This document shows, in pieces, positions 4,381 to 44,399 of a DNA stretch of 64,000 nt; positions within the stretch are counted from its first letter, which is position 1; every line of letters starts with the position of its first letter. Position numbers and translations under genes: made by a program. The DNA comes from Blasia pusilla (Eukaryota), in NCBI GenBank assembly GCA_050084515.1, contig CM114271.1, positions 15,562,001-15,626,000 of the forward strand. The letters run 5' to 3'. The notes under the pieces were generated by a model. That model had not been told where the DNA came from. It worked only from the letters and a program-made list of their open reading frames with translations, and did not search any database.

Positions 4381-6057
4381 TATAGATAAAGGAGGTTTTT
4401 CCTCAAAAATGAAATCAAACTTTTTCTTAATTTTCTCTTCTTATAGTATAAACATTTATTTTTTCCTCTCCATGTTCGTAGTAAAACGATGAAGTTATAA
4501 GAGAATCCGAACTTTAGAACCCTAACTTCTACCAAACAACAAAAGGGCAACTTGGAAGCTCAATATAAGTTTTTCAATATGATTGAGATTATTTTGATGT
4601 ATGGAGAAGACACATGCTAGAATTCAAAAGCAATATTTTACACTCTTTCAAAGTCAATTGTAGTATAGAACATTATATAATATGCTTTTAGGAGGGTGCT
4701 TTCTATTTGAAAGATAGCGAGTTTTTTGCAAGGATGCAAGTGGGGCATGAATGGAGACTCTTCGTCCAATTTGCAAACCATAGGTATAGGTGTCTTGACA
4801 TAGACAATCATTACGTTTGCTTGCAAGAGAAGTTGGAGTGTGATGGATTCATTCATAAGTTCATAACCAACATGGAAATAGACATAAAGGTTCCACGATG
4901 AAGAATCATTTTGTTTATGTTTATTAGAATGATCGCATGAATAATCAAGCTTCTAAGTTCCACACTTGATGCATGCAAGACTTGCACAAGTGCTATAGAT
5001 GAAGAGGCCAAAAACACACTTACCCAAGCATCATGGTGAGAAGTTACTGAATGGGACAAAAAGTTAGAAGACGTTTGCCTTGTTGGATGGATTAACTTAC
5101 TTAAAGAAGAAGTAGTTGGAACCATAATCACAAAATAAGAAAGGAAAAGAAGAATTGAGTTTGACAATGACTTATAAGATGGTGATTTTGAGGATAAGAA
5201 GCCTCCTCCTACTAAGATTTCAAACTTGGCCATTTGGAAGGTCTCCAAAGGTGACATCAAGAATTTCGAGGCATTGGAAATTTGGCACATCATTGGAGCA
5301 TTCTAATGAAGTTTCTAATGGTAGCGATATCTTGGGTATAGAATTATGGAAGGATGACCATCTCATTAATTTGGCCAAAGAGGAGCAACATACCTAAGAA
5401 AAAACAAGTGATTGGATTGAGGAGACAAATAAAGCAAGTGGAGCATTAGAACAATCTAAAATAAACAAGGAAATCTAGAAAACCCTTTGCAATCATTAAA
5501 TAGCATAGAAGATATTTTGGATTAAAGAGTTTCAAATTGTACTAGGGAACAATTGCCTTGTAAAGTTGCGAATAAAGGGGTGATGTATAAATTTGAATAA
5601 AAAATTCCATGAGATCATAAGAACGGCATAAAGCTAGATGAACTAGAAACTCAAATTGATTGTTGAAGAGAAAAAGTAGGATTCCATCCCAAAATAAAGA
5701 AATCAAAAAGAAAATGTTTCAAGCCTTTAAGGCCCTTCAAGTATTATATGCCTACATAATAATCTGAATGTTCTTTCCAACTTTTTCTATTTGGTCATAA
5801 ATCTTTAAAGGGTTATTTTAAAATTTTTTCCCATGCCTTATGGGTCCTCGAGATACAATGCTCGATTTTGTCGGTCCAATTCCAAAATCCTAATCTTAAT
5901 TTTAATTAAAGTGGTTGGTAAAAATATTCACCATGAATCACGTTGACCTTGAACTTCATCTTCCTTCAAACTTTGGAGCAAGGTTTTACAAGGTTAGAGG
6001 GACCAAGATACCAATGCAAATTTTCCCACTAATTTATTTTCTTGGTTTAGATAGTGA

Positions 6058-6150
6058 CCGTCAATGGTCCGCCATCAACGGTCAACCGTCATCATCAACG
6101 GTCAACCGTCACCATCAACGGTCAAAGGTCATCGTCAACCGTCCACGGTC
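6058..6150 (+). repeat. ~20-bp tandem repeat (CCGTCACCATCAACGGTCAA) in the retroelement 5' leader
   Basis: About 4 imperfect copies; the homologous array in copy 3 is at about 62565-62655. Confidence 0.8.
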
Positions 6151-7177
6151 CGTTGTCCACCCTTTGGTTGCCATTTCCGCCATTACGGAGTGGAGGGTTT
6201 TCCACGATGTTCGTTGATTCTCTGACTTGCGTCGCCACCACGTACTTTGTTTTGGCTGCCATCGTCATCGCAATTTCATCATCAACCAGTGATGGCAGAT
6301 GACCTCCGGTTATGGTGTTTGAGTTTTTGATTTCATGCTGCTATGTTGTGATTGATAGCCGATCGATGACGATCGAGTACCATGCTGTGACGCCCGTAGC
6401 CGTAGCGCGCCGCCGATTGCTGCGCCATGCCGCACGGCACCGTCTCGATCGCGGAACTGCTCCTTCACTAAGGAGCAGAGCGTATGAATTGCTAATTGAG
6501 GAGGATATGCCGCCGAGTGCCGCACCCCATTCCCGAGTGCCGTATTGTTTGTAGCCGTTCTGTGCCGCCAGTGCCGCACCGGACCGCTCGACTTGCACCG
6601 CACATCGAGGAGGTTGAGCAACGTCAGTACAAGAGGAGTACGACTTGCTGATTGGAGGAGTTCTCTTCATGATTGAGTTGGGGTCAAGATTTGCAGTTTC
6701 CGAGGAGCGACATCGACATTATTGTCAGGTTACCCATTCTGGTCTCTTACCCTGCACGTGTGAGGGATTTCCGAATATTGGGAAGTTATTTGGGATATTG
6801 GGTTTCGTGTTGATGCTAGGAGCATTGATAATGTATGGGTTTAGGGGACATAGAGCTATGTGGGATGTCCAGAGTTGAGGATGGTTTGTCGATGAGACGA
6901 TAGATGAGTGATTTGCTGCACCACGCTGCTTGTTACCGCACAACACACATCTCAGTGAGAGAGTGTAGGTTGAATGCCGTATGTTTAGTTTAAGTGATTG
7001 AGGGATTACTTGCAAGATTGAGAGTGATCGTGTGAGAAGGGCATGAGGGCCATCATGGCGTCCTTTCAGGATTTTGAGAGACGAGGTAGTGGACCTGAGA
7101 GTAGCTTTGGAGGGTTTACCTAGAGTGGTGCAAGGTTTCGAGGGTCTCTACGTGAGAGACCACCTCAATCTCCTTAT

Positions 7178-8327
7178 GTGTTGTCTTCAGACAAGGGGGA
7201 GCGTATAGAGGAGTGTGTTAGTGATCCACCGTACACATTGAGTGGTCCTACCACTTGGGCGTACGAGATGGACGACCAGGGTAGAGGACGGCGTAGGTTT
7301 TCGGGTGCTGTAGGCACTATAGAGCTATACGACTTCATTGCGGAGTTTAGGAGTTGGTTTGACTCAAAACGGGCTTGTAACTCTAGAGAGTTCTACCCGT
7401 TTACAACATGGAACGGTATGTTCCAGCATTTAGAGGGGGCGTCCATGGACGATTACCATGAGTTCTCCAACAGATATGCCCAAGAGATTGAGGCATGGCG
7501 ACTCTACTATGACCCACACTATGTGTCATGGACGTTCCCAGATGAGGAGGAGGAGTCAGGAGAGGCTACTTCCTCTTTCATTAGTGATGTTTTAGGAGGG
7601 TTCACTCGTACTAGAGCAATTGCATCGTTTAGTCGGGTTCGTCCGAGGTTCAACCCTGTGGTTGAGTTCTTTACTGAGTTGAGGGTGAGCTACCAAAGAA
7701 GTTGGAACAAAGAAGTTGTGGAGCATCCACAATTTCCAAAGGCGCCCGGGTGAGAGTTTGCATGAGGCTTACACTTGCTTGCGTTGGTTGATCAACGTCA
7801 CTCAGGGGGTGACAGAGGCTCAGGCTATCCAGTCATGGTACACGATGCTGGACTGGACCCTGCGGACACGGGTACGGGAGGGGGTGCTTCTTATGAATAC
7901 CTTCCCTATGTTGAGAGATGCTTTTAGGACGGCCAAGAACATTGAGCGCAACATGGCGGAGGAGAGCGTAGCCACCATGGGTTCTGGGCGATAGCACTCC
8001 CGATTGTTTGCACCACCTGTACAACAACGTGGACTCTGAGATAGGTCGACTGTGGCATCACGAGCTCAAGGAGGATATTAGGAGGTCGTGCCACAGAGAT
8101 CTGCACCTTCATATGCGGCTCAACAACAGCCGCCTACTATTCCTTGTTGGTCATGTGGTGGAGCCCATCATCAGCGCGATTGCACTCGTCAGGGTCACGG
8201 ACGTGTGCCTCAGCATGGAGGAGGAGATGGTGCCGCACCAGGAGGTTATGAGTGTGAATATTGTCAGAGGTATGGTCATACACGCGCCAGGTGTTTCAGT
8301 TTACATCCCGAGTTACGTCCGGACTGA
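7178..8327 (+). pseudogene. Gag (capsid-like region plus two zinc knuckles), frameshifted
   Basis: ORF pieces 7178-7753, 7716-7994 (QRRPGESLHEAY, MHR-like) and 8088-8327 with CWSCGGAHHQRDC and canonical CX2CX4HX4C CEYCQRYGHTRARC. Confidence 0.85.
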
Positions 8328-9149
8328 GGGCTAGAGAGGGCACAGAGCAAGTAGCCGGTCTAGGTGGGCCTATAGATCATGCACAAGGTGGTTCCGTTGG
8401 GGGACGAGGAGCTGGAGATGCCCATGGAGGAGGTAGAGTACCACCACCTAGATGCGGCAAGGGAGATGCCGGACGTGAGGTTGGGATGGCTGCTCAGGTA
8501 CAGCGGCTACAAGAGCAAATTGTTGCTATGGCATTGAGGTTACCCGATGCCAGATCCGTGGTATCGACATCATATGGAGCAGCCAGAGATATGGAGGATC
8601 CTGGTGGGATGTGCGGGGTTGCCCAGATGGAGGTCGTCGCGGTTGTGACGCGTGGAGCAGCCGCAGAGTTGGATCCACAGCGAGGGGAAGCCAGAAAACA
8701 GACTAGGCTTCCTCAATCTTTCACGTTGTCTGAAGCGATGAGGACCCCATCGATGGGTCCTCATCAAAGTTCCTGGAGAGTTGGTGATGTTGTTGGTGTG
8801 CACGCACGGAAGGCGATGGGAGAAGTGAGTGCGACGACTCCTATTGTTGATGCTCAAGAGGGGCATGTGTCGAGCACGTTGCTGGGGGCGGCCACCATTG
8901 TGTACCGCACTTCTTTATTTTCTGCTTCCGATGTTATGACATTGGGGGATACGCTCGCCGAGGCTTTTCGGCTGGTCGCTTTACTATGTGAGTGCGGAGT
9001 TGGAGTTCTTGCATCACGTTTAGAGGTGATTGCAGAGGAGGTGATGGACCTGCCCTTGGAGCAGATGCTCGGGCCGTCCACTTCAGATTCATGGCACGCT
9101 GCGGCTGCAAGGATGGCGGAGATGCCCGCTAGACCCGCGATAGAGCGTG

Positions 9150-9604
9150 CCATGGCTTCTCTTGGTGTTGTGTTGCTAGATAATCGAGGAGAGGTCTTCC
9201 ACTTGGTGAGTCCTGGAGGTAGAGCTTTTAGTCCGCAACGCATCTTGTTGGATTTAGGAGCGCAACCCCTGATGTTGGGGAAAGTGTCATTCAGAGGAAT
9301 GGGCTTGACGAGAGCCGATGTGGAGCGTTGTCCATTCCGGATACAGATATCCTTGGGTGGAGCGAGCATCACACAATATATCATCCGATAAGAGGTCATG
9401 GTGAGGATTCGCCCGGGACATCCTACAGATGAGTCCGTGGTGCGAGCCAAGGCGATAGTGACTGATACAGAGTCCTACCACGTCTTGGTTGGTGGAGCAG
9501 TGTTATACCCGATGGGGTTTTTCCTGGATTACTGGGAGGAGTCAGCATCCTACAGACCAGGATGGCAGTCACGTAATGGGCGCCTTAGCTCATTACCCAT
9601 TTGA
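9150..9604 (+). pseudogene. Retropepsin-like aspartic protease
   Basis: RILLDLGAQPL (Asp codon 9251-9253; copy 2 has ILLDPGGQPL) and downstream YHVLVGGAVL. Position between Gag and RT fits. Confidence 0.7.
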
Positions 9605-9961
9605 TTCATAGTTGCAGTGATCGCGCGACGGCCAGGAGAGGTGGCAACCTTAACAACATTTAGTAGTGCCATCATTTGGCCTAGTGATTTGATTTAGGGA
9701 CATGTCCATGTAGAGGATACTCCCGTTCCTGACATTTCTATGCAGAGGAGTATTATGGTAGCCGCATCATTCCGTGGAGGAGAGGTGCCGCTGTGGGGCT
9801 CGACTGAGGAGCTTCGACGATTGGCAGATGAACACATGTAGACCGCGTGGAGCGAGGAATTTGCATCGGAGTGTGACGGGTCTAAGGAACCCGAGGTAGC
9901 AGGGAGTGCTACGATGACACCCTTGGATACCACACCCATTTTGTGGCGTATTGTGGAGGAG

Positions 9962-10890
9962 GATATTCAAGTATTAGATCTCCTTGGAGGGATTAGCATC
10001 GGGTAAGCTTCTGTTTTGCAAGCACGAGTGCAGCAGGTGCTGTAAGTGGAGAGTGATGATGTTGCAAGGCGCGTCTCACTACGACATGTCGTGCAGTTAT
10101 GCCTACGTTTTCCCAACTTGTTGTCTACGTCCGCGATACAGGGGTACCAGAGTTCCCTAGCGAGAGATATTTCGTTGTTAGGGGCAGAGGACTTGGAGCG
10201 GGTAGGGACCATTGATTAGGTCATTGCAGGTTGGCCATGTCAGGGTCAATCGAGTGCTGGACGAGGCATCGGGTTGGTTGACACTCAATATTTTGGGAGA
10301 TGCTGAGGGTCTTGAGATATTTGCAGGAGCATCAGTCTCGTTCTCCGGCTTACATTGTGGAGAATGTACCGATCTTGGGCGATTCAAGGTCATGGGTAGT
10401 GATGAGTGCACATCAGGTGCGTGCCTAAATTGGCCCAATATTAGTTTTGGATGCGGCGAGTGTGGACATCGCCCGGGTCTATGATGGACCAACATGATAC
10501 CACACGAGGTGTTGCGGAGGGCGTATGCAAGAGTGGAGCGCCCCTCCCACTTGTTAGTGGATTCCATTATGGATCCGGGTCATGGATCACAAGCAATGAG
10601 GCATGATGATCGACCGCCGTTGATTGTGGTCAATAGGGTAGGCCGGCCGCGGGCAACCTTTCCCACGTTTGTGAGTTTTCCTGCTTCCTATGCAGACAAG
10701 GAGGCCAATCCTGGCTTGGTTTGGGATGACCAAGTTCAAAGGTTGGTAGAGCCCAATGCCAATAAGAGAGAGCGGGCGATGGGATTTCCCACAGGAGTGA
10801 CGGCAGTACCGTCAGTGCCAGAGGCATCACGACGCCATGTCTTCGGTTAGGCGATGGACCTGAACTGCTTGACATGGATCTTCAGCTTGG
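9962..10890 (+). pseudogene. C5 cytosine DNA methyltransferase domain within retrotransposon pol (copy 1)
   Basis: Motif I VLDLLGGISIG (9971-10003); motif II VESD; motif IV VIAGWPCQGQSSAG (PCQ 10235-10243); motif VI YIVENVP (ENV 10360-10368); motif VIII LDAASV..HRPGL*WTN; motif IX RERAMGFPTG; motif X SRRHVFG*AMD. Motifs are in linear order, with stops and frameshifts. Confidence 0.92.
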
Positions 10891-11231
10891 GAGTGGCTGA
10901 GCAACATCGGATGAGATCACAACAGATCACAGCGGTTGTGTTGGTGAGCCCCATGCCTACCGAGACAATGGAGGCAGTGGCTGGGGGCGAGACCCGAGGA
11001 GATGGACACACCAGGGGAGATCGAGAGAGACACCCTTTGACTTCTTGGGATGTTTTGCAGGTACGCCAGGAGATGATAGCCACAACATCGAGCATGGTTC
11101 CAGGCACTGCATGTGGAGGAGATCAGAGTTTGAAGTTGGTTGCAGGAGAGCGGCCAAGTGTTGGTGTTTGAGACGGGATTGCACCATAGCAACCATCGAT
11201 ACCCGCCCCGGAGAGTCCTATCGTAGTCACG

Positions 11232-12660
11232 ATGGAGACTTGGGAGCCAGATATGGGCCCTAAGTTGACAGGAGAAGAGCGGCGCTGGATACATCAGTTC
11301 CTTAGGAGTTATAGGAGCTGCTTTGCGTTTAGCATGGAGGATTTGGATATTCTGAAGGGACTAGGGATCCGCATTGAGTTGTCGAGTGATACACCAATCT
11401 TCCGACGATCCTACACGTACAGTGATATGGAGAGGGCTTTGATTCAAAGTAGGACCCAGGACTTGGTTGGAGCAAGACTAGTGGAGATGTCGCATGGGGA
11501 GTATGCATCTGCCACTATCATGCTTGCCAAGAAGGATTTGCATGGCAACTCGACGGATAGGCGGATGTGTGGGGATTACCGGCCTGTCAATCGGCAGACA
11601 AAGTACGATAGGTATGCCATGCCCACTCTTGAGGAGATCTTTGATACAATTGATCACACAAAGATATTTAGTTCATTGGATTTGCGAGCCGGATACCATC
11701 AACTGCCTATCATATTGGAGGATAGGCAAAAGACGGCATTTTGGGGCATCGATCCTCATGGGAAGGATTATTTGTACCAGTGGCGGTTCTTACCATTTAG
11801 GTTAAAGAACGCCTCGGCTGAGTTTTAGAGGGTCATGGATAGGATCTTGGCAGGTCTGGATTTTGCTAGATGTTATATTGATGACATTGTTGTATTTAGT
11901 GCCACGGTTGAAGAGCATGAGCAACATCTAGAGGAGGTGTTCCGAAGATTGTAGTTACATGGGTTGAAGTCACATCCAGGCAAGTGTAAGTTCTTCTACG
12001 ACTAGATTGAGTACTTGGGTCATACGATGTACCTAGATGATCTTGTTGTTTAGTAGACGAAGGTAGAGGCTATTTCACGCATTCCACGCCCTATAGATGT
12101 GAGCTTTGTTCGTGCATTCATGGGATTGGCGAACTTCTATCGGCGGTACGTCAAGGGATTTAGTTTGATTGCGAAGCCACTGACCTTGCTGACCAAGGTG
12201 GATCATGAGTGGCATTGGGAGGATGAGCAAGAGCGAGCATTTCAGCTGCTCAAGGATAGATTGACGTCCGCGCCCATCTTGAGAAGACTGATCAGGGGGC
12301 ATCCTTTCTAGTTGCACACAGATTGGAGCATATTGGGGCTTGGAACGGTGCCCATCCAACATGATGATGAGGGTAGAGAGTTCGTGGTGGCTTACGCTAG
12401 CCGTTCAAACAACATTGCAGAGGCAAAGTACAGCTTGTATGAGGGTGAATGCTTGGCTACGGTATGGGCTGTCGCACATTTCAGGTGTTATTTATTCGGA
12501 AATCCACTGATCATCAACCACTAAAGTGGTTGATGAAGTCTGACAAGCTTACAAGGAAGCTTGCGAGATGGGCTCTGTTGTTGCAAGAGTACGATTTTCA
12601 AGTGGTACATAGACCTGGGACGCTCAACCAGGATGCAGATGGGCTAAGTCGTAACCCATG
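11232..12660 (+). pseudogene. Ty3/Gypsy reverse transcriptase plus RNase H
   Basis: RMCGDYRPVN, FSSLDLRAGYHQ, KTAF, LPFRLKNA, YIDD (11874-11885); RNase H HTDWS..GLG, VAYASR, EGECLA, TDHQPL. Confidence 0.95.
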
Positions 12661-12873
12661 CCCGAGTCAGCAAGATGTGATTGGAGCTCGATGGCATGGA
12701 GAGAATGATGAGGAGTCAGAGCTAGGATGGCACGCGTCAGCCTATTTAGGCTTGTTGGCTATGGAGAGCCAGAGTGTGGAGACTTTGATAGCGAGGTCTA
12801 ATTGAGAGTCCTTGGATCCTGAGGCCAGTAAAGAGACGACATCTGGCGAGATATTCACAACGATGAAGTAGTC

Positions 12874-13960
12874 TTGGAGAATCTGCGTACTGGCAGCGTT
12901 GCGAGCACAGTGGGTGCTAGAGAGCGGGATCGAGTCCTACAGCGAGCCAGACGGTTCCCCTCGGAGGGGACACATGTGTTGCAAGTATGGAAGGATGGTA
13001 GAGTCCGTGTAGTGCCTCATCCTTTGCAGAGAGCACGTTTGGTGCGTCATGCCCACAAGGAGTTGGGTCATTTTGGAGTGAAGCGGACATATAGCTTGCT
13101 CGAGATTCAGTATTGGTGGCAAGGCATGCAGATTGACGTTCAGGATTTTGTTGCCAGATGCATGGTGTGTGATCGAGTCCGAGCATCGTTCAATGCTCCA
13201 ACTCCACAGTTGCATCCACTTCCGATCATGGGTTTAGGTTAAAGATGGAGTTTGGATTTTGCAGGACCTTTGCCTTTGACGGAGCACCATAGTCGTTATA
13301 TGTTGGTGATGGTCGAGCACTTCTCGAAGTGGATAGAGTTGATTGCATTTCCTGACAAAGTGAGTGAGGGAGTAGCGTATGCCTTCCTAGATCAAGTGGT
13401 GAGTCATTACGGCGCACCAGCTGAGGTGTTGATAGACCAAGGTACAGAGTTCCGCGTGGAGTTTCAGACCTTGTGTGATGAGGCATTGATCGACCACCGC
13501 ACTACTTCGCGAGATCATCCTGAGGCGGATGGACTAGCGGAGCAGGTTTTGTAGATGATGAAGAGAGGACTACGCAAGTATGGCTTGCAAAGAGGTCACC
13601 TAGGAGATTGGGACCTTGAGTTGCCGTGGTTGGCGATGGGATACAGATTCAGCAGGCAAACATCCTTAGCGTCTTTCTCACCGTACTTGTTGCTTTATGG
13701 CCGTGAGCCAGATTTACCTATGGCCATTCTTTGAGATATTGGTGAGGTGTTGAACCTTGATGACCTTGATGTATGGATGCAAGCATGTTCTGAGAGGGCT
13801 GAGTTGTTTCAGAGAGTGATGCCCATGGGGTTTGTGAACTTGGCGATTGCACAATATTGGGATACGTTGAGGTATGCAACTATTTGAGGAGGTGGTTATC
13901 AACCTACTATCCGGAGGTTTCATCAGGGAGACTATGTCTACTTGTAGCAGACGACACCCA
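12874..13960 (+). pseudogene. DDE integrase
   Basis: HHCC zinc finger (HKELGHFG...CMVC); catalytic LDFAGP, DQGTEF and HPEADGLAE. Confidence 0.93.
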
Positions 13961-14151
13961 CGACGTTGGATGTGACTGCAGGGTGCACCATCTTGAGAGT
14001 GCGTGAGGTTTTGCCATCTGATGTTCTCTTATTAGAGGGACGCGATGGTATGGTTTGGAAGGACTATGTGCGTAACTGTATGCCATGTCATCTTCCGAAC
14101 ATTGACGGTACAGTTGATCCAAGCTTAGCAATAGTTCCTACAGGCTTGCCG

Positions 14152-14292
14152 TGTATGTTGTGTGGTTCCGCCCGTGGTGCAGCGACTATGCTAGTCTGTG
14201 ATGGGTGTTCGAGAGGATGGCATACGGCATGTTTGACGCCACCTCTCACTAGGGTTCCTCAGGGATGGTGTATGTGTCCCAGATGTACATAG
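14152..14292 (+). other. PHD finger at the integrase C-terminus (intact C4HC3)
   Basis: CMLCGSARGAATMLVCDGCSRGWHTACLTPPLTRVPQGWCMCPRC followed by the stop at 14290-14292. Confidence 0.92.
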
Positions 14293-14460
14293 AGTAGGTA
14301 GTTTTACATTCCAACTTGTGTTTGTGACATGGATGACAAGAAGGCGACTAACGATGGGGCCACATGCGCACCCGACCTTCTTGCTCTTAGCGTTCGAGAG
14401 ATATATGTCATGGTAGGTAGGATAGATGGCTATCTGGATTTAGAGGGACCTAACCACCAG

Positions 14461-14471
14461 CTAGGGGGGCG
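14461..14471 (+). other. Polypurine-tract-like sequence
   Basis: CTAGGGGGGCG immediately precedes repeat B1; identical at 33943-33953 (minus strand) in copy 2. Confidence 0.6.
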
Positions 14472-14599
14472 ATTGGAGATATTTTGGTACTTCTTATCTC
14501 GTTGTTTGGATGCCTTGAGTTAGCATGGGATCGTGTGTGTTTGTGTGTGTGTTCGGTGACAACGATGTATGTTGTGTAGCGATATGTATGCGCATAATA
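14472..14599 (+). repeat. Split direct repeat B1 (~128 bp), copy 1
   Basis: ATTGGAGATA...CGCATAATA, a direct repeat of 15116-15244. Confidence 0.9.
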
Positions 14600-14601
14600 G
14601 C

Positions 14602-15115
14602 TGTCACGTCTTTTAGGATAGATCGGTGAGATCTAGTAGAGCGCCTTCGTGAGTAGCAAAGGACAATCTCAATAGGTCGAGGATGACCTGTTGAGACCTT
14701 GGGAAACTTGAGAGAGCAGGTTTCCCCTTCGTTTCGGCTCATTTGGAGCCATATTGAGGAACTTCCTATTTTAGGTAAGTACCATTTTAAGTATATGGTC
14801 AAGTTTATATTTTGGGAAGTGGCCCTTGACCTCCTACATAAGGTCAAGAGCCTAGGAGGTGACTTGGGAGCATAGGTTACCATTGGAGAGAGCTTGGGAG
14901 AGGAGAGGGGTATACCTCAAGGAGAGAGAGCTTGAGAGCTCATTCTCTCTTTGTTGAACCTCTTGGCATAAAGCGGCGGAGCTATGGTCCCTTGCATTGT
15001 GAGTGTAACCCAAGCCTCTCAATAGGAGAGTGGATTTGGTTTGACATGAGAGAGAGTGCACACCTTTGAGAGCTATGGTGTGAGATGGTGTAGAGAGAGA
15101 TTGGATCTTACTTTA
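14602..15115 (+). repeat. Split direct repeat A2 (~510 bp, LTR-like, starts TGTCACG), copy 1
   Basis: Matches the 5' termini of copy 3 (61492-62009) and copy 2 (39527-39938), and 33304-33812. Confidence 0.9.
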
Positions 15116-15244
15116 ATTGGAGATATTTTTGGTACTTCTTGTCTCGTTGTTTGGATGCCATGAGTTAGCATGGGATCGTGCGTGTTTGTGTGTGTGTTCG
15201 ATGACGGCGATGTATGTTGTGTAGTGATGTGTATGCGCACGACA
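15116..15244 (+). repeat. Split direct repeat B2 (3' terminus, ends CACGACA), copy 1
   Basis: Direct repeat of B1; homologous to 33176-33303. Confidence 0.9.
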
Positions 15245-15319
15245 ATGATAAATGCAATATCCAAATCTCATTTTTTTTATTAAATGGTCTACTCGCTCCT
15301 TAAATAAATGACTATTGAA

Positions 15320-18493: not shown

Positions 18494-19860
18494 ATGGATG
18501 ATTGGAGAGAAGAAATGAATGCAAGGCTCAACGATTCAGATGAAGACCAGATGGAATTCAAATTTATGCAGCAAACAACCCGGGTACTAGCTTCTTTGTT
18601 GACAGGACCTGCTAACCATGGTGGTTCACGACCTTGCAAGGCTGCAAATGTGAACCGACAGAGAGAGGTAGGCCATGAGTGGATCTTTCGAGACTATTTC
18701 TGCCCACATTCATGAGTTTATGGGAACATTTTTTCCAGAAGACGGTTCCGCATGAGGAGGTCATTGTTCCTACAAATCATGAACAAGGTCTGTTCACACG
18801 ACAAGTACTTTGTTCAAAAGAGAGATGCAAGTGGGAGTTTAGGCTTGTTGCCCATTCAAAAATGCACTACAGCAATAAGAATGTTAGCTTATGGCATAGC
18901 AGCAGATGCAACAGACGAGTATTGTAGGATTGGGGAGTCCACAACTATGGAATCTATGAAACGATTTTGCATTGCCATCAAGGAAATTTATGAACCCTTC
19001 TATCTTTGGCAACCAACTCGGGAGGACATTGAGAGACATATGGAAATCAATGAACGTAGAGGGTGGCCAGGAATGTTCGGTTCATTGGATTGCAAGCACT
19101 ACACTTGGAAAAATTTTCCTCTTTCTTGGCATGATCAATTCAACAATAAGGATGGAGACAACAAAATTGTGCTTGAGGCTGTGTGTGACCAATCCCTGAA
19201 CTTTTGGCATGCACACGTTGGGATTCTCGGTTGAAATAACAACATTACTGTGTTGGATTCCAACACAGTAATGTCCTTATTTCAACCAACACAGCTTGGT
19301 GGGAAGCAACAAATTTGTTGCTTCCCACCAAGTCCTCTCATTGAAAATTTCTTAAGACAGGATATTGATTACCTTTCATTTACTGTCAATGCAATGGAAC
19401 TACTTAACCAAGGTACTATTTGTTAACTGATGGCATTTACCCAAGGTACTCCATCTTTTTTCAAACTATTCATGAGCCACAAATAGAGAAGTTTTCCTAT
19501 ATTGCAAAGAAGCAAGAGAGTGCTAGAAAAGATGTGGAGAGGGCATTTGGAGTGCTACAAGCCAAATTTGCAATGATTTCAAACCCCTTTAGGATGTGGG
19601 ATGCAGTACAAGCCGGTGAAGAACATTTGGATGGCCTATGTTTTATTGCACAATCTGATCATTGAAGACGAGAAAGACATGAATTTGGAACCTTTGTTTG
19701 ATTCCATTCCTCAACTAGGAATTTTTCGAGGGTTAACTTTTCAGTATTTGATGGAAGGCGTGATGGAGATCATGGATGAGGGAGCCCATATAGTTTGATA
19801 AATGACTTAATTGAGCACCTATGGGACCGTAGAGGTATGCTTGAAGGAGACGACGAGTAG
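18494..19860 (+). pseudogene. PIF/Harbinger DDE transposase
   Basis: FRMRRSLF, QKCTTAIRMLAYG, GMFGSLDCKH, LTDGIYP, RKDVERAFGVLQ; stops and frameshifts. Confidence 0.92.
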
Positions 19861-23278: not shown

Positions 23279-24699
23279 TCAGATCAAACCCACGACAATG
23301 GCGATGACGAGAGTTGACGCCAGCAGCAGCCCCGAGGCCGATGGAAGAATCGTGATCCCAGCGCTTTCGATCGGGAAGATGTCGGGAAGTTGACACTCGT
23401 CCCCGTTGAACCACACCCGCTTGGGAAATCCATCTCCACCGGTGACATTGATCCCGGGTATCAACCTCTTGTTGAAGGACATGATGGACTGGACCTTACC
23501 TGGAGTGATGCCTCCCTCCAAACCGAGCAAGTAATCGTTGTAGCTTTTCTTCCCCTTCATGAACACGAGGTCCATCTGCTTATTGTCGATGAGCGTGGTG
23601 ACCTCGCTCCCGTTAAAGCTGTAGACATCCTGGTAGCCCGCCAAGGCCTTGCCCAAGTCCAAAGCGAGGAACCAGTCCGCCACCGCTTCCGCTTCCCAAT
23701 TGAAAAGCGTGATTCGGGTACTATATCCCTTGGCGAAATCAGAGTAGATGTGCCAGTTGATGGTCACGCCGCAATTGTCCGGGCAGGGCAAAGGATTCGG
23801 GATGTTGAATTTATCGATCCTGGCCAGCTCCAACGCCAATGCGGTGCGGTTGGAGGGCGGGAGGAGAAGACCGTATGTAGGTAGGAGCATGGACTCTGCG
23901 TTGGGGTCACACGTCGGGTTGGCCTTCTTGCAGTCGCCGCAAGCACAGCTCGGGCATGGAACGACGGAGCTGTTGTAAAACCCAGAAAAGGATACGCAAC
24001 ACTTGCGAGGTGTACTCGGGTCAGGAAGCGTCTGGTTGCAAGTCACCTGCCAGGTGATAGCAGCGGAACTGTAATGGAGGCCTGGATCAGGCCCCCATTC
24101 AGATGGAGCCACGAGTCTCGGTAAACCACAAGTGTAAGTCGATGCACCCTTGTTGAGATCACCGATTCTCCAGTTGGCAGGAGGGTCGACCTTGGTTTTA
24201 CCCTTCTGAAGTCGCCCCTTCTGAACGTCGAGGGTGAACACGGACTTAGTCATAGCAGGAGCGATTATCTTCGGCAGAAGGGATCCGTTCCGACAGCAGA
24301 AAGGCACCGCCATGTCCCCGTTAGACGCGAACTCCAGCGAAAGATCTACGATGGTTGGCGTTTTCTGACAACTCATAGCTGATGAGAAATCCGCTCCGGG
24401 ATTCAGTTCTGCTTGCGGGCCGTTCAAGCACTGCTCCTGGTCCTGCTCTAGTGTTTGGGCGCCCTTCATTCCCTGGATGTACTCGTCATACAACCAGTCC
24501 CACGTCAAGTTCCAGTGGTCGATCCTGCCGATCTCTTGATCGAGAGAAATCGTTACCTGTGCGGTGTATTGCTGATCAAATGTCTTCACTACGTCGTAGT
24601 ACATTGTGATGTCTCCTTTCTCCCGTGGTAGCCACTTTTTGCTCGCGGAATCTGCCAGATCGGTAGAGTTCTCCTTGCAGCAGACGACCATCGTGACGT
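23279..24699 (-). CDS. COBL: COBRA-like protein (COBL7 subgroup), exon 2 of 2
   Basis: LPREKGDITMYYDV, PTIVDL, CCRNGSLLP, CCVS motif (KCCVSFSGFYN), PCPDNCGVTINWH, GDGFPKRVWFNGDEC, hydrophobic GPI-signal C-terminus. The AG acceptor (24701-24700) is phase 1, matching exon 1. Confidence 0.93.
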
Positions 24700-25175
24700 C
24701 TAATACATCACGGGTGAATATTAGGCGCACTCGTATATACTGTAACGGGGAATGGACGGTACTCAAGGTGCACGAAATAAGCGCATACGAGACAACTCAA
24801 TCGTAAAATTCCCGCATGGACATAAAACGGCAACGACAAGAATATGGAGCCCCTACTGAAATCCTTTCTCGTTGCACGATACCCTCGCTTTCAACTCGAT
24901 TGGTCGGGAAGGACTTCGTGATATTCATTTTGTTTTGCACGTCTTCACGAGCAGATCCCCGAAGTTCCCAAGGCCGCGCGAAATCAAAGAAACTCCCTCC
25001 CACTCATTACGACCATAACTCATACTCCAAATTCTTTCGTGTGCATGACAAGAACGTTAAACGGTTGCTGTAAATTGAATTTCGATTAAGGAAGTCCCAT
25101 TTCACGTACACTGAACGATCACCTAGCCTCTTCACACAAGGATAAAGGATCTCATACAAGCAGAAGAGCACTTAC

Positions 25176-25848
25176 TGGCTTCAATCGCCGGCTTGCTGCA
25201 GTCATAGCCAGTGTTCGTGAGGGAGATATTCTTTGGAAGAGGTATGTCAATCGGCTGCCCTGGACCCACTCCAAACTCGGTTCCTGTGATTTGGTATTTT
25301 ACTTGAATTAACTGAAAGTCCTCGGCTGTATCGATGGAGGTCAGCAAATCCGGATTGTCCGTACCGGTCAGAGTGGTTCCATTTCCCACCAATGCACCGG
25401 GCAGGATTTGACTTCCGTCACCTATTACCACTCCTGGAGCCTCAGCAATCACTTCACCATGTTGGAACCCGATATAGAGTTCCCAATTACGCAGCTCAGA
25501 GTAACCCGCGTTGGTGAGCGTTCCAGAGGCTTCAAATTTGTAGGGTTGGGTCGCATTGATGAGAGAAATTGGAAGAATTCGCTGGAGGGACTTCCCGGTA
25601 GTATACGTAAGAACTACTCCCTTACAAGTATAGAGATATTGCAAATGCAGCGGCAGTGCTGAAATGTTTGTACCGTATGGAAGCGCGGCATGCACTACGG
25701 TCATCAGAAAGCACCAGGAAGCACAGAGGATGAGTCTGTTCCATGCTCCTACTTGCTTCATGGTGGACAGCCGCACCGAGCTCCTCTGCCGTCCCAGGAC
25801 TACCGCCATCACCTTTCTATGACAACCTATCTCTCTCGTCACATTCAC
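25176..25848 (-). CDS. COBL: COBRA-like protein, exon 1 of 2 (start may be 25848, 25809 or 25761)
   Basis: Signal-peptide-like segment, CKGVVLTY, QPYKFEA, WELYIGFQHGE, DLLTSIDTAED, GTEFGV. The GTAAGT donor after 25176 joins exon 2 in frame (IEA-N-VTM). Confidence 0.9.
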
Positions 25849-27233
25849 AAATTCAAATCTTCATAGCCGGAACTCGCATCTCCCTAAATTCTCATGTCTC
25901 GGGACTCCTAGCGCTTAAGTTGGTGGTGCTGATCTGAGATGCTTAGACTGCCGCTTTGTGCCGAGAGACACTGACGTTGTAGCCACCCAATTTCCGGTCT
26001 TCTGTGGGGTGACAGGCACAGAGATGGAGGCAAAGGATGGTACAATGGTACCAGCGTAATCTCCGATCGAGATCCACCATTTTAAGTACGCTGTTCTCCT
26101 CCGATAATTGCACTGCAAATCCTGCTGTTCTCCTTTCTGCGTGCGTAAGCCTCCCACGTTCTCTCCACAACTGCCCATTTTTCTCCTTCGACCGTGGCCC
26201 TAACTTTCCATCACTGTGAGACTTTCACCAAACTGTCATTCATTCACCTCCTTGTCCCAAACCTGCGCACTTTCCTCTCCACTGTTCCACAAACTCATAT
26301 TCTCAGTCAGTTACTGTCACTGTTCCGAATCAACCCGTTCCCTCGTTTCCCACCTGCCTGGACATCCTCTCCTTACCGCCCCGATCTTCTCTTACTCCAG
26401 CTGTGTGCGCCGCACAATTCCTCACGTCCGCCTCCCTTCAATCGACCACCTGGTCTCGACTCCCACACGCTTCCCTACTCGCCGTGCCCTTCACCCCGGT
26501 CAGACTAAACTGGTTGACGACGGGCTCCCATCGTGATCGCCATGACGGCGCAGGCCACCCTGTTCTTACGGCATAAACTCTTACGGCATCCATAGCTACG
26601 ACATCCATAGAGGGGTTTTCCCAAGCTCTCCCGTGTCCTTTCGTGCCCCGGGGCCCATGATTCATCCGACCGGTTTTCTTGCGTGATTGTAGCCAGTAGA
26701 CTTGCCCTGAAAGGTACAGGTCATCCCGGCGAGCTGTTAGCCATCGTGGCTTTTCAAAGGAGCGACGGCGGCTCCCGTAGGAGACGCTGCTGCAGAAGGA
26801 CGTTTCATAGTACACGCTACGAGAGCCATGGGAATTGTCAAGCTCTCGCTTTAGGGCTATTTGGGACAGAATGCGTCCTTGCAATAGGGTCTCACTGACC
26901 CTCTAAGGGACGTAACCCGGAGTTATGGTGAAGGGGGGTTGAAACAAAGGTTGTTGTTTTGTTGCAAGAGGGACAAAAGAAGGCGAAAGAAAAAAGGGGG
27001 CTTACCCCATACAAATTGAGCTCACTGATAGGAGAGACAATATCGATGAAGTCTAGTGAAAGACAACTAGCGTTAAGAAAGCTTCCAACAATGGTGTCTC
27101 CCGCAGCTTGAGCCAGCCTCAAAAGCCCATAGGCTTGGGCATGCTGCCAAGCTATGGAGACCCATTAGCTACAATGAAGAACATTAGTAGCTAAAGTGTC
27201 GCGCCCCTACTCTCCTTGAACGTCAATCTTTAA

Positions 27234-31659: not shown

Positions 31660-33175
31660 AAATATGCATATGGGAAATTATAGTTTGGAAGGTTAAGACT
31701 AGAAGTGATTCCATAAATTGAAAAAGGTGAAGCTTTAAATGGAAGACATGAGTACAATTTTGATGCTAGTATGAGTACACCCAAAGCCGAATTGCTAGGG
31801 TTGCACACGGACAAAGTCAATGTCCGAGGACATATCCATGTCCATGGACTTATGTTCGTCCTATGGACGGACATGCGCGTACGGGCCCAAGTACGTGCAG
31901 CTGGCACCTGAGCCCGCCCGAAGCCCGCCACATAGACCCGGGTTGACAGAGCCCGCACCCATTGCGTGCCCTGCCAGGGCCCAAGGTCGGTCCGCAACCA
32001 AGGCTTGCAAGCCTGGTTACGGGCCGACAGCGAGCCCGTGCAGGCCAGACAACACGTGCGAGCTCCGTCAGCTCGGGTCTACGTGGCGGGCATTGGATGG
32101 GCTTCGGGCGGGCTCGGGTACGGGCCGGGCATGTTTGGGTCTTGTGTGTTTTCATGAAACCTTGTGACTTGCAATTGGTAGTTGGGGGATATGCAAAAAA
32201 ATATGATTTGGACTATGATGAGACTTTCAATCTTGTAGCCAAGATGATAATAATGAGAAATTTTGTGTCATTGGGAACTAGAAAATTATAGATAATGCAT
32301 GAGATGGATTTCAAGAATGCACTTTCTCATAAAGATTTGGACAGACAAAATCAACATAGTTAGCCACCTAGACATGACTCTTGAGCATCTAGATTATCCT
32401 TCTTTGGTTACTTTATGCAAATAGAGGAAGGCTCTTTATGGACTCAAACAAGATGTAAGAGTATTGTAAGATTAATCAATTCCTAGACACCGTTGCATTT
32501 CACACGTCTTAGTTTAAATTCTTTATTTTTTTTACTAAGAATTGAAGGAAATTAAAAATTATGCTTTTTGTCTATGTTGATGATGTAATTGTAATTAATA
32601 GCAAAAAAATCTTGAAATAGAAAATCAAAGTGCAATAATGTTGTAACTAGAGTTTGAATGCAAAGATGTGGAAGAGCTCAAAGTGAGAAGCCTATTCCCA
32701 TTGGACCACATTGTGAAGCTTACAAGAGACAAAAGGTTATGAGATAAGTAATAATAATATCTACTGTGATATAGTTGGGGGCTTGATCTACTCTACTATC
32801 ACAAAGCTAGATCTCACTTATATGGTTGGTTTAGGAAGACCATACATTTATGCGATCATTGTAAAAACCCCATCTTCATACATTGAGGTGGATCTTCAAA
32901 TATGTAAAGTTCATAATTTTGTTTGGACTTTACTAATCCTCGAGCCTTTGGAGCTACACAAATACACTCATACAAATTGGGCTAGGAGCGCCCTTAACAA
33001 AAGATCTACTTCCATGTATCCACCTTGAGGAAGCAACCGTATGTTGGAAGGTAGATACGCGAGAGCAACCATGAAAATATGCAAGGAAATATGCGAACGA
33101 ATTTGGTTGACGAGTTTATTTATATATACAAGCTTAGAATGTTCAGAAATCAATTCCATATATGGAGATAATATC
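31660..33175 (+). pseudogene. Ty1/Copia RT-RNase H remnant, 5' part
   Basis: LVVGGYAKKYDLDYDETFNLVAKM, HEMDFKNA, KALYGLKQ, VYVDDVIV, then IPYGDNI-like RNase H cut by the Gypsy insertion. Confidence 0.85.
31796..32164. mobile_element. hAT-type MITE nested in Copia RT
   Basis: TAGGGTTGCAC / CATGAAACCTTG termini; degenerate 8-bp TSD CGAATTGC/TGACTTGC. Confidence 0.75.
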
Positions 33176-36100
33176 TGTTGTGCGCATACACATTGCTACA
33201 AAACATACATCGTTGTCAATGAACATACACACAAACACGCACGATCTCATGCTAACTCATGGCATCCAAAGAACGAGATAAGAAGTACCAAAATATCTCC
33301 AATAAATCAATGAAATCTCACATCAATGTCTCACACCAAAATTTCCATGGTGTGCACTCTCTCTCATGTTAAACCAAACCCATTCTCCTAGTGAGAGGCT
33401 TGGGTTACGCACACAAGGCAAGGAGGACCATAGCTCCGCCGCCTCATGCCAAGAGGTTCAACAAAGAGAGAATGAGCTCTCAAGATCTCTCTCTTGGAGG
33501 TATACCCCCTTCCTTGTCCCAAGATCTTTCCTTGGTAACCTATGCTCGCAGGTCAACTCCTTTGCTCTTGACCTGCTGTAGCGGGTCAAGGGCCACTTCC
33601 CAAAGTGGAAAGTTGACTATACTCTAAATGGAAACTTACCAAAAATAGTAAGTTTCTATATATGGCTCCAAATGAGTCGAAACAAAATGGAAACCAACTC
33701 TCTCAGGTTATTCGTGGCCTCAAGAGGTCATCCTTGACCTCCTGAGGCTGTCCTCTAGTATCTCTGAAGGTGTTCTACTAGATCTCACCGATCTATGTTA
33801 AAAGTCGTGACAATTATCGTGTGCATAGACATCCCTACACAACATACATCGTTGTCAACGAATATACACACAAATACGCACGATCCCATGTTAACTCATG
33901 GCATCCAAACAAGGAGACAAGAATTACCAAAATATCTCCAATCGCCCCCCTAGTTGGTGGTTAGGTTCCTCTAACTCTAGATAGTCATCTATCCCTACCT
34001 ATCATGACATATATCTCTCGGAGGCTAAGAGCAAAAAGGCAAGATGCTCATGTGGCCCCATCGTTAGTCGCCTTCTTATCATCCATGTCATTGACATAAG
34101 TCAAAATCTAGAACTTCCTACTCTATGTACATCTAGGACACATCCATTATCCATGAGGAACCCTAGTAAGAGATGGCGTCAATTCTCAAACGCCATGGGC
34201 ATCACTCTCTGAAATAACTCAACCCTCTAAGAACATGCTCGCGTCCATACATCAGGGTCATCAAGGTTGAACACCTCACCAACATCTCGACGAATGGCCG
34301 CAGGTAAATCTGGCTCTCGGCCATAAAGTAGCAAGTACGATGAGAAAGACGCTAAGGATGCATGCCCGCTAAACTCGACTAACATCTGTAGGGTGTGGAA
34401 TGCGTGAAATAGTCTCTACCTTTTTCTACTGTAGACCAAAGCCCCTTGGGTATATCGTATGACCCAGGTACTTAATATGGTCGTAGAAGAACTTGCACTT
34501 CCGTGGATGTAGCTTCAGCCCATGTAACTGCAATCGTCGAAACACCTCTTCTAGATGTCACTCGTGCTCCTCAACCGTGACGCTAAAGACTACAATGTCA
34601 TCAATATAACACCTAGCAAAATCCAGACTTGCCAAGATCCTATTCATGACCCTCTGAAACTCATCCGGGATGTTCTTTAACCCAAATGGTAAGAACCGCC
34701 ACTGGTACAAACAAGTCTTGGTTCCTACTCTGAATCAGAGCCCTCTCCATGTCACTGTATCTATAGGGTCGTCACAAGATTGGCGTGTCACTTGACAACT
34801 CAATGTGGATCCCTAGACCCTTCAACATACCCAAATCATGCATGCTAAATGCAAAACAACTCCTATAACTCCTAAGGAATTGGTGTATCTAGTGCCACTC
34901 TCCTCATGTCAACTTAGGGCCTATATCTGGCTCCCAAGTCTCCATCATAACTACGGTAGGACTCTCCGGCGCAAGTGTCGGTGGTTGCTATGGTGCAACC
35001 CTGTCTCGGAAAATAGAACTTGACTGCTCCCTTGCAACCAACTGTAAAATCGGATCTCCTCCACGTGCAGTACCTAGAACCACGCTCGATTATGTGGCTA
35101 TCATCTCCCGCGAAACCTACAAAACATCCCAAGAAGTCCAAGGGTGTCTGTCTCGATCATCCCTGGTATGTTGATCTCCTTGGGTCTTGCCTGACCCGAG
35201 CCACTGCCTCAACCGTCTCGGTAGGCATGGGGCTCACCAACGCAACAACTCTAATCTGTCGCATCCGCAAACGACGCTGCTTAGCCACTCCTAAGCTAAA
35301 AATCCATGTCAAGTAGTTCAGGTCGATCGCCTGACCCAGGACATGACGTCGTGATGCGTATGATAGTGATGGTACTATTGTCACTCTTGTGGGAAATCCC
35401 ATCCCTTGCTCTCGCTCATCGGTGTTGGGTTCCACCAACCGCTGTACCTAGTCATACCAAACCAAGCCAGGTCCGGCCTCCTTGAATGCATAGGAAGCAA
35501 GAAAACTCACCAATGTCGGAAAGGCTCTTCGTGGCAGACCAATCCTGTTGACCACAATCAACGGCGATCGATCATGATGCCTCACTGCCTGGGATCAACA
35601 ACTTGGATCCAGAATAGAATCCACCAACAAATGGGAGGGGGACTCCACTCTCGCCTACGCCCTCCGCAACACCTCATGTGGCACCAAGTTGGTCCATCAA
35701 AGACGCATGCGATATGCTCGTGAACCTACACTCACCGGATCCAACAACACTTCCGTACTTGATGTGCACTCGTCACCACGCGAGACTTCGAATCGCCCAA
35801 AATTGGCACATTCTCCAGAATGTATGCTGGAGAACGAGACTGATGCTCCTGTCGCAAGATCCGCATCATCTCCCAAAATAACCTGGACCGCGAGTCAGTT
35901 AACCCGCTACCTCGTCAAGCACTTGATTGGCCCTGACACGGCCAACCATCAATGACCAAAGTTATGGTCCCTACCCGCTCCAAGTCCTGCGCCCCCAACA
36001 ATGAAATGTCTCTTGGTAGGGAACTCTAGTAACCCTAGATGGCAGATGCACACAACAAGGCGGGAAATTGGAGGCGTAATTGCGCCAAATGGTGAAGTGA

Positions 36101-43680: not shown

Positions 43681-44399
43681 AAGGAAGAAAAGGAAGAAGA
43701 TCCTGCTAAAGAATAGAATATGGAGGAAGAAGAAGCAGCTAATATATAGAGACATGATGTTAGCTTAGATCTATGAATATTCCACTTATCAAATAACAGT
43801 GCAATTTCTCCAACCTGACATATTCTTGTATTTTTTTGTCTTTTCTCTTGTAATTATACTTTTCTTTATTCCTTATGTATCAAAGTGATTGATCGTAGGA
43901 CAATATGCATACAACAAATCTAATTGGTCAAAGGACAGAAAGTTTTAGGAGAAAAGTTGGAGGTTCGTTGTACAAATTTTGATTCGTTGTACGATAAAAC
44001 ACTTAAACAATGCTAGGAGTCCACCTACCTTAAACCTACAACTAATCCACCATAGGAAACAATACTGCATGCAATAAATCTAATTGGTCAAAGGACAAAA
44101 CTTGTGATTTATATTAGAAGAAAAGGTGGACAATTCTTATACAAAATATGATTGATCGTATGAAAAAACATTTAGCAAAGGTAAGAATCTACACACCTTG
44201 AACCCAAATCGCATTGGTCATAGGATTTAAATTATTTCCTCAAGACCAAACAAGTTTAGATATCTAACTCCTTAATTTTGTGTTTCTAAAGACATTTTTA
44301 TCAACTTAATTTCTCTTCTTTTCAAATTGTTTAAGAGAAAATTATAGGCAAACATATGTTTCTCTCCTACATCCAATCTATCCTTCTTCTCCTTCCTAG

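Follow-up and report, generated by a model that had tools for sequence, protein, structure and literature searches.

Self-comparison by BLAST of a 64,000-nucleotide stretch of Blasia pusilla DNA (assembly GCA_050084515.1, contig CM114271.1, positions 15,562,001 to 15,626,000 of the forward strand; the whole stretch is referred to as the window) revealed three copies of one repeat family. The family is a retrotransposon that carries a DNMT3-like C5 cytosine DNA methyltransferase (DNMT) domain, which was found in two of the three copies. Retrotransposon-borne DNMT3 is already known as a kind, and the family in the window is a land-plant member of it. All three copies in the window are dead and are of value only as fossils.

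Copy 1 (about 6054-15246, all features on the + strand) was truncated at the 5' end, with the terminal repeat of that end and about 550 nt of leader sequence missing. The remaining leader (6054-7123) began where the homology to copy 3 (62563 onward) began in the self-BLAST. The gag region (7124-8327), recognized from open reading frames (ORFs) and weak zinc-finger matches, was decayed, contained a CCHC-like zinc knuckle near its end, and resembled by eye the gag of the Marchantia relative P0166. The aspartic protease (PR) region at about 8861-9604 was located by tblastn with the relative P0006 and by ORF 8258-9391; copy 1 read LLDLGAQPLMLG at the place where relatives have LLDSGAQPLMLG, and the Asp_protease_2 domain was present in the relatives P0028, P0180, and P0183. 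The DNMT3-like domain (9845-10904, tblastn) was followed by a reverse transcriptase (RT; 11190-12100), which matched PF00078 with 24 bits (cutoff 29.6) and to which the head of a Marchantia RT aligned at 11241-11804 by tblastn. The position of the DNMT between the protease and the RT was thus as the original prediction, made from the letters of the window, had described it. Downstream of the RT lay an RNase H (RH; 12057-12524; PF17919, 64.3 bits; PF17917, 62.6 bits), a DDE integrase (IN) with an H2C2 zinc domain and an rve core (12832-13554; PF17921, 61.4 bits; PF00665, 48.6 bits), and a C-terminal PHD finger on the integrase (14152-14290; PF00628, 32.9 bits, cutoff 24). This arrangement, PR-RT-RH-IN with an integrase of the DDE type, corresponds to that of Ty3/gypsy elements. 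Copy 2 (33175-39936, - strand) was a whole but internally deleted element, without counterparts of the copy 1 segments 12103-13648 and 13838-14233, which comprise part of the RT, RH, and IN and most of the PHD finger; its DNMT3-like domain was located at 35274-36346 (-) by tblastn. Copy 3 (61491-64000, + strand) was cut by the end of the window and retained its 5' long repeat (61491-62009) and the leader and gag from 62563.

The intact relative P0002 (368 amino acids), which is essentially the DNMT domain alone, was used as the tblastn query against the window as the only database. Residues 5-367 aligned with 9845-10904 of copy 1 (+) in frames 2, 1, and 3 with a summed E of 2e-110, and residues 2-368 aligned with 36346-35274 of copy 2 (-) in frames -1 and -3 with a summed E of 8e-106. 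At the level of the sequence, the match in both copies is real and far beyond chance. The six-frame translations and the tblastn alignments showed motifs I to X in the canonical order in both copies. Motif I read VLDLLGGIS in copy 1 and MLDLFEGIS in copy 2, motif IV read GWPCQG in both, motif VI read YIVENV and YILENV, motif VIII read HRPGL*WTN and YRMRL*WTN, motif IX read ERAMGFP and EQGMGFP, and motif X read RRHVFG*AMDLN in copy 1 and RRHVLGQAIDLN in copy 2. The methyltransferase motifs that had been claimed in linear order at 9962-10890 and 35290-36215 were therefore present, and both spans fell inside the measured ones; the quoted string LDAASVGSRAHRxRLxWTN, by contrast, was a composite of the two copies and could be read in one frame in neither of them. 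Both domains were decayed, as had also been noted, with six in-frame stops and two frameshifts (near 10288 and 10452-10464) in copy 1 and nine in-frame stops and one frameshift in copy 2. The two DNMT regions were 78.7% identical over 1087 aligned bases and had two stop positions in common, one at 10004 (TAA in copy 1, TGA in copy 2) and one at 10482 (TGA in each). Because of these common stops, the last common ancestor of the two copies was probably already defective, and both DNMT-bearing copies probably descended from a broken progenitor. The two insertions are thus no independent witness of a functional retention of the DNMT. The earlier argument that two independent insertions made the domain a stable part of the family was weak in this respect, and the family membership itself stood on the intact relatives.

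The dependence on intact relatives was also seen with the Pfam profile of the enzyme class, PF00145 (gathering cutoff 22 bits), which the original prediction had proposed as a check. Only two of ten open pieces of the window matched it (12.3 and 19.3 bits), as did two of six pieces in which the stops were read through as X (17.4 and 18.6 bits), with collinear profile positions in these sub-cutoff matches. The window's own pieces (12.3-19.3 bits) therefore did not reach the cutoff, whereas four of five intact relatives tested exceeded it (31.9-42.7 bits), and P0012, P0022, P0028, P0180, P0183, and P0246 were above it as well. The identification accordingly rests on the intact relatives. The cleanest piece of the window, 10485-10847 (121 amino acids), retrieved at least ten proteins at 59-70% identity in a protein search, including proteins of Calypogeia fissa and Sphagnum jensenii.

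To place the domain among the known methyltransferases, a profile was built from eight intact relatives and all PDB sequences were searched, which gave 52 matches at E<=1. The first 29 distinct PDB sequences were DNMT3A, DNMT3B, and DNMT3C (E 2e-14 to 1.4e-9). They were followed by tobacco DRM (3.9e-8), DNMT2-type enzymes (1.1e-5), DRM2 (2e-5), M.HaeIII (4.8e-4), and M.HhaI (1.8e-3), and no chain named DNMT1 was found among the 52 matches. The family profile aligned with DNMT3A in the same order, motifs I-VIII and then IX-X, with profile positions 92-278 on residues 7-173 and positions 367-397 on residues 237-267. The DRM matches were confined to the C-terminal part of the DRM chain (chain positions 225-350), as expected of a permuted enzyme against an unpermuted profile. 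Judged from this alignment, the domain is unpermuted, in canonical order and not of the DRM type, and the order relative to DNMT3A upheld the claim that it was not circularly permuted like DRM. An AlphaFold2 model of P0002, computed from an alignment of 69 diverse relatives, had a predicted local distance difference test score (pLDDT) of 94.5 and a predicted template-modelling score (pTM) of 0.93; an earlier model from eight sequences was unusable (pLDDT 36). The predicted structure showed a class I methyltransferase fold with a target-recognition lobe. All Foldseek matches in the PDB down to rank 50 were DNMT3A, DNMT3B, or DNMT3C chains; the best ones (E 1e-18) were DNMT3A-DNA complexes, and the target template-modelling scores for isolated catalytic domains were 0.80-0.85. 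The predicted catalytic residues C140 and Q141 (motif IV), E183 and N184 (motif VI), and R223 and R225 (motif VIII) were conserved in at least 90% of the 69 relatives. By profile, predicted fold, and motifs, rather than by a tree, the domain is DNMT3-like and its closest characterised relatives are DNMT3 enzymes. The DNMT3 resemblance suggested from the motifs alone was thus confirmed by the first 29 PDB sequences and by all Foldseek matches to rank 50.

The likeness to the animal enzymes (PDB 6f57, 6w89, 6u8p, 8tci, and others), which were the best matches in both profile and fold, extended to the order of motifs I to X and to the blocks of motifs VIII and IX, which could be aligned. However, the identity in the structural alignments was only about 20-23%, motif IV was PCQ in the retroelement family and PCN in the DNMT3A chains, and the stretch from motif VIII to motif IX occupied 88 profile positions in the family and 63 residues in DNMT3A. 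Unlike animal DNMT3, the family domain had no adjoining PWWP or ADD domain; the PHD finger of the element lay about 1100 residues downstream, on the integrase. The PCQ of motif IV is that of most bacterial enzymes, and one relative, P0306, was filed under a cyanobacteria-like metagenome-assembled genome (MAG), so that the domain might instead be a methyltransferase of the bacterial or viral restriction-modification type that was not derived from DNMT3. This origin appears very improbable, since the bacterial enzymes were the weakest matches of the profile (M.HaeIII 22 bits and M.HhaI 20 bits, against 56 bits for DNMT3A) and P0306 clustered with environmental sequences of the same domain order as the window copies (type I, defined below), which is most simply explained by a misbinned eukaryotic contig. 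In NCBI, P0306 is entered as a 'DNA cytosine methyltransferase' of a 'Candidatus Obscuribacterales' MAG, and the contig was probably a misbinned eukaryotic one.

When the whole set of 1.84 billion cluster representatives was scanned with the family profile by HMMER, there were 4889 matches at E<=0.001, 1207 at E<=1e-10, and 358 at E<=1e-30. Among the matches listed, the liverwort hosts were Marchantia polymorpha, M. paleacea, Riccia sorocarpa, and Calypogeia fissa, with many gene models in M. polymorpha (e.g. Mp_4g09160, Mp_6g11220, and Mp_8g17980); the peat-moss hosts were Sphagnum fallax, S. jensenii, S. troendelagicum, and S. tenellum; and the green-algal hosts were Haematococcus lacustris, Chromochloris zofingiensis, and Cymbomonas tetramitiformis. 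The remaining ones were the Obscuribacterales-labelled MAG and mostly unnamed metagenome proteins. Neither a vascular plant nor Klebsormidium was found among the matches listed (10, 96, and the best 120 of 425), an absence that means little. The named relatives in Marchantia, Riccia, Calypogeia, and Sphagnum bore out that the family occurs in land plants, and the DNMT domain was open in relatives from Marchantia, Calypogeia, Sphagnum, green algae, and many metagenome contigs. In a FastTree phylogeny, the two window copies, with X at the breaks, paired on their own branch within a clade of 20 rows (Shimodaira-Hasegawa-like (SH-like) support 100) together with Marchantia, Calypogeia, and Sphagnum sequences.

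Pfam annotation of the relatives revealed two domain orders. P0028, P0183, and P0180 were single open frames of 2188-2358 amino acids with gag-CCHC, PR, DNMT, RT, RNase H, and IN in frame, and thus had the type I order, gag(CCHC)-PR-DNMT-RT-RH-IN, to which P0180 added a PHD finger; the window copies also belonged to this type. The type II order, RT-RH-DNMT-IN-PHD, was found in P0022, P0032, and P0246. P0040 and P0235 were of type II as well; their DNMT was missed by Pfam, and the family profile placed it at residues 760-1118 of P0040 and matched P0235 with an E of 7.9e-54. In a local scan of 360 relatives, 81 had the order RT-RH-DNMT-INT-PHD and 37 had PR-DNMT, and the rest fell into smaller partial classes. 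A FastTree phylogeny of 228 DNMT domains parted 39 type I from 136 type II domains by one branch (SH-like 98); the tree was unrooted, its sample consisted of the best matches to the type I profile, and its support values were SH-like only. The window copies, both dead and with two shared stops, could on their own represent a single accident, in which a host DNMT3 fragment lay beside, or was captured once by, one retrotransposon copy. This possibility was ruled out, with next to no probability left to it, because the domain occurred in the polyproteins of hundreds of clusters; complete open frames carried the DNMT in frame, and an RT lay directly downstream of it at 55 loci. The in-frame relatives of 2188-2358 amino acids agreed with the original view of the C5 DNMT as integral to a Ty3/gypsy family. 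Taking the anatomical statement as a whole, it is highly probable that the DNMT is a built-in, ancestral part of a Ty3/gypsy-order lineage of the green lineage.

The boundary between the DNMT and the RT was compared in a sample of 80 metagenome loci, which gave 81 sequences with the window. The RT directly followed the DNMT tail in 55 of the 81 sequences, and the two shared a frame in 47 of 56 such pairs. Proteins of the nearest clade (Marchantia P0166, Calypogeia P0006 and P0009, and the metagenome proteins P0005 and P0007) ended about 110 residues past motif X, and more distant type I proteins continued into the RT. In the clade of the window, a stop was found at one homologous codon in all 18 loci (TAG in 15 and TAA in three), followed by CAACCC in 16 loci and by CAACTC and CAACCT in one each. 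In a second clade, both loci had TAG CAGTTA, and in a deeper clade the stop was absent from both loci. Both window copies had TAG CAACCA at this homologous end of the gag-PR-DNMT frame (11187-11195, + strand, in copy 1, with the RT following in the same frame; 34990-34982, - strand, in copy 2). UAG-CARYYA is described as the type I leaky-stop signal of tobamoviruses (PMC5382211); CAACCA and CAGTTA fitted CARYYA in full, and CAACCC fitted it at five of the six positions. The conserved in-frame stop between DNMT and RT implied that the DNMT belongs to the gag-PR frame. The earlier placement of the domain "inside pol" has to be made more precise for the clade of the window, where the DNMT is part of the gag-PR frame and precedes a conserved UAG. 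From this conservation and its context, the element would be made as a Gag-PR-DNMT product, with RT-RH-IN-PHD produced by readthrough only. Two Marchantia gene models, P0260 and P0167, joined the DNMT to the RT frame and skipped the stop region; the predicted introns in them are probably an annotation artefact.

The terminal repeats of the element did not have the layout of a typical member of Ty3/gypsy (Metaviridae). The 3' ends of copies 1 and 2 consisted of short-long-short repeat blocks. In copy 1 (self-comparison, + strand), these were the short repeat A1 (14472-14600), the long repeat B2 (14602-15115, starting with TGTCAC), and the short repeat A2 (15116-15246), which was 93% identical to A1 and closed the element with ...GCGCACGACA. 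In copy 2 (- strand), they were A1 (33813-33942), B2 (33358-33813), and A2 (33175-33303), with the long repeat B1 (39528-39936) at the other end. Copies 2 and 3 began at their 5' ends with the long repeat only, and no short repeat was detectable beside B1. The long repeat started with TGTCAC at all four places and the element ended with ...ACA, so that the termini are TG...CA. A possible 5-bp duplication, GATAT, was seen around copy 2, which hinges on a one-base shift of the boundary. Among the 41 longer metagenome loci, nine had a repeat pair flanking the DNMT, and in five of these (L049, L052, L054, L059, and, weakly, L077) a short pair surrounded the 3' long repeat; of the four loci without it, one had no sequence left past the repeat. 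A short repeat beside the 5' long repeat was found in none of these nine loci. The layout is that of the DIRS-type A-coding-B-A-B split direct repeats and not of plain long terminal repeats (LTRs). The element thus has the PR-RT-RNase H-IN order and the DDE integrase in common with Ty3/gypsy (Metaviridae), in which two identical LTRs are the sole terminal repeats, and has split direct repeats instead of the latter.

Cytosine methyltransferases have been reported in LINE- and DIRS-type retrotransposons of Symbiodinium and in Gypsy-type ones of Klebsormidium nitens (PMC5890265), and the precedent cited in the original prediction (de Mendoza 2018) was correct as far as the main text of that report goes. 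The Klebsormidium element, KnitGypsy-Dnmt3 (Nat Commun 9:1341), was similar to the family here in its Gypsy-type domain set with a DDE integrase, in its unpermuted DNMT3-like domain within the polyprotein, without introns, and, according to the legend of Fig. 4c, in its DIRS-like A-coding-B-A-B repeats instead of plain LTRs. Its DNMT was reported to have a Ka/Ks below 0.2 (PMC5890265). In contrast to KnitGypsy-Dnmt3 as described there, the hosts of the family here include land plants (liverworts and Sphagnum) and chlorophytes. The words PHD, protease, and chromodomain are absent from the main text on KnitGypsy-Dnmt3, and the likeness was judged by description and not by sequence. An alternative is that a Gypsy element of a lineage other than KnitGypsy-Dnmt3 captured a DNMT3-like gene independently, for a second time. 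The authors of the 2018 report inferred that the acquisition was specific to 'the K. nitens lineage' (PMC5890265); in addition, no Klebsormidium protein was found among the matches listed here (10, 96, and the best 120 of 425), and the DNMT occupied two different places of pol in two sister lineages, so that the module moves. On the other hand, the missing Klebsormidium matches mean little, and the Gypsy domain set, the unpermuted DNMT3-like domain in the polyprotein, and the DIRS-like split repeats are common to both elements (PMC5890265). A second capture appears rather unlikely.

Other elements were similar to the family in part. In SymbioDIRS-Dnmt3 of Symbiodinium, as presented in PMC5890265, Pol likewise contains a DNMT3-like domain, the direct repeats are split, and two domain orders coexist, but a tyrosine recombinase is used, in a separate ORF, and the hosts are dinoflagellates, whereas the elements here have a DDE integrase (rve). 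No tyrosine recombinase (PF00589) was found in any protein scanned, and rve and Integrase_H2C2 were present instead. The EpiLTRs of Cymbomonas and Euglena (bioRxiv 10.64898/2026.05.21.726589) are likewise of the LTR type, with a cytosine DNMT and a chromatin reader; in the account given there, pol has a DNMT4-related domain at its 3' end, accompanied by a chromodomain and a DAM adenine methylase. By comparison, the Cymbomonas relatives P0246 and P0247 here had a DNMT3-like domain between RNase H and integrase and a PHD finger. The same preprint mentions 'streptophytes (Gypsy-DNMT3)', with no land plant named at that place, and a passage of PMC12344493 mentions DNMT3 in 'LTR Copia and DIRS' elements 'in streptophytes and dinoflagellates', again with no land plant named there. 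Section 5 of the latter calls the DNMT3-bearing elements of streptophytes 'LTR Copia'; they are Gypsy in the original report and by the domain order here. No description of DNMT-bearing Gypsy elements in land plants was found in the literature searched, and the supplementary trees of PMC12344493 and of the 2026 preprint may hold bryophyte copies. What appears to be new here is the host range, which extends to bryophytes and several green algae. The anatomy that may be added to the published description consists of the UAG boundary, the integrase-borne PHD finger, and the occurrence of two domain orders.

The PHD finger occupied the place at the integrase C-terminus that is taken by a chromodomain in chromoviruses, with which the element may share a strategy of directing integration to chosen targets, as cited in bioRxiv 2021.11.30.470311. 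No chromodomain match was found in the proteins scanned with Pfam, which had the PHD finger (PF00628) in that place; PF00628 was present in 65 of 96 long relatives among the matches listed, as counted from the precomputed annotation. In the PDB, the best matches of the finger were the PHD fingers of KDM5B (E 6e-13) and KDM5A (1.3e-12) and of the fly homologue Lid, and further matches were CHD4, KMT2C/D, PHF21A, ATXR5, DPF3, KAT6A, BAZ2A/B, AIRE, and UHRF1. Most of the closest solved PHD relatives bind the tail of histone H3 unmethylated at lysine 4 (H3K4). PHD fingers have been mentioned in Chlamydomonas retrotransposons (PMC8557442), so that the finger alone is not new, and fusions of transposable elements with PHD fingers have been noted more widely (bioRxiv 2021.11.30.470311).

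These features suggested a way in which live relatives might work. The DNMT would be made together with Gag and PR, and RT-IN would be made only on readthrough of the UAG; with the DNMT in the Gag-PR product, it should be abundant in the particle. De novo methylation by this enzyme could then affect the newly synthesized cDNA or the element just inserted, and the PHD finger of the integrase may tether integration to nucleosomes whose H3 tail is unmethylated at K4. Methylation of new copies is also the hypothesis put forward for Pol-borne DNMTs in the Discussion of the 2018 report (PMC5890265). Methylation of the DNA of the element's own new copies is the predicted function, whose chances we put well short of even. 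The domain could also act on RNA, namely the genomic RNA or the primer of the element, in the manner of DNMT2. The DNMT shares its frame with Gag and PR, the part of the element that packages RNA, the Klebsormidium enzyme methylated no DNA in yeast, and the 2018 authors raised RNA methylation for another retrotransposon DNMT (PMC5890265). However, DNMT2-type chains matched the family profile with 27.4 bits against 56.2 bits for DNMT3, the motif VIII stretch HRxRxxWxN and the IX-X block aligned with DNMT3A, and the predicted fold best matched DNMT3-DNA complexes, which makes an RNA substrate quite improbable.

In its broadest form, the interpretation is that of an ancient retroelement clade, spread over the green lineage, with a module that writes and reads epigenetic marks. 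The writer would be an enzyme of the DNMT3 type, encoded before a leaky stop and produced in amounts similar to those of Gag, and the reader would be an integrase PHD finger of the type that binds the unmodified H3 tail. Live members in Marchantia or Sphagnum would methylate the DNA that they had newly made and would select chromatin unmethylated at H3K4, and DNMT3 genes may also have been exchanged between the clade and its hosts. As a joint statement, this interpretation is tentative and, all parts together, unlikely. Several points weigh against the main interpretation, namely the built-in, ancestral DNMT and its proposed working in live relatives. The DNMT match was in one open frame in only six of the 80 metagenome loci, and most copies were dead. 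The signs of selection were mixed, with a ratio of nonsynonymous to synonymous substitution rates (dN/dS) of 0.14 for the pair L038-L040 and of 0.83 for L003-L004; the ratio was 0.18 for L003-L038, with dS saturated at 2.8, and a fourth pair was too saturated for an estimate. A low ratio between lineages and a near-neutral ratio between close copies would be as expected of copies that decay after insertion, for which three values are too few. The window copies showed no special loss of CpG (observed/expected 0.71-0.87, compared with 0.73 in the rest of the window), and hence no trace of unusual methylation in the window. The only published test, made in yeast with the Gypsy DNMT of Klebsormidium, gave no de novo methylation, a result that its authors called inconclusive (PMC5890265). 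The enzymatic activity of all family members is predicted from sequence and model, and the place of the domain within the DNMT3 clade was suggested by profile, fold, and motifs and not by a tree of all DNMT classes. The putative readthrough was deduced from context, with CAACCC, which has five of the six motif positions, in most loci, and the candidate preference of the PHD finger for unmethylated H3K4 was taken over from the ligands of its solved relatives.

Cytosine methylation is the main weapon of the host against transposons, which makes a transposon with a de novo methyltransferase of its own paradoxical. If the write-and-read interpretation were true, these elements would set their own epigenetic state at birth and would not wait for the host to do so. 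In the literature searched, the only streptophyte case was the alga Klebsormidium, for which, according to the 2018 report, activity was not demonstrated and the gene was believed to have been acquired in that lineage only. The family described here provides several experimental handles, which are the DNMT in the Gag-PR frame before a stop of the leaky type, the PHD finger of the integrase, and the combination of split repeats with a DDE integrase. Marchantia polymorpha is a genetically tractable model, and with relatives in Marchantia and Sphagnum the question becomes testable where methylomes, mutants, and transformation exist.

Outside the element, the only clear host gene seen in the window was a COBRA-like gene at 23282-24796 (- strand), perhaps together with 25135-25860 (-), which had an open exon of 505 codons and matched PF25079 with 250 bits and PF04833 with 147 bits; this gene identifies the host as a streptophyte. 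A fragment of a PIF/Harbinger-type transposase was located at 18716-19231 (+ strand; PF04827 Plant_tran, 74 bits). Further short repeats, inverted or in tandem and without relation to the element, were seen in the self-comparison at 31906-32103 / 31911-32119, 43900-44204, and 59439-59853.

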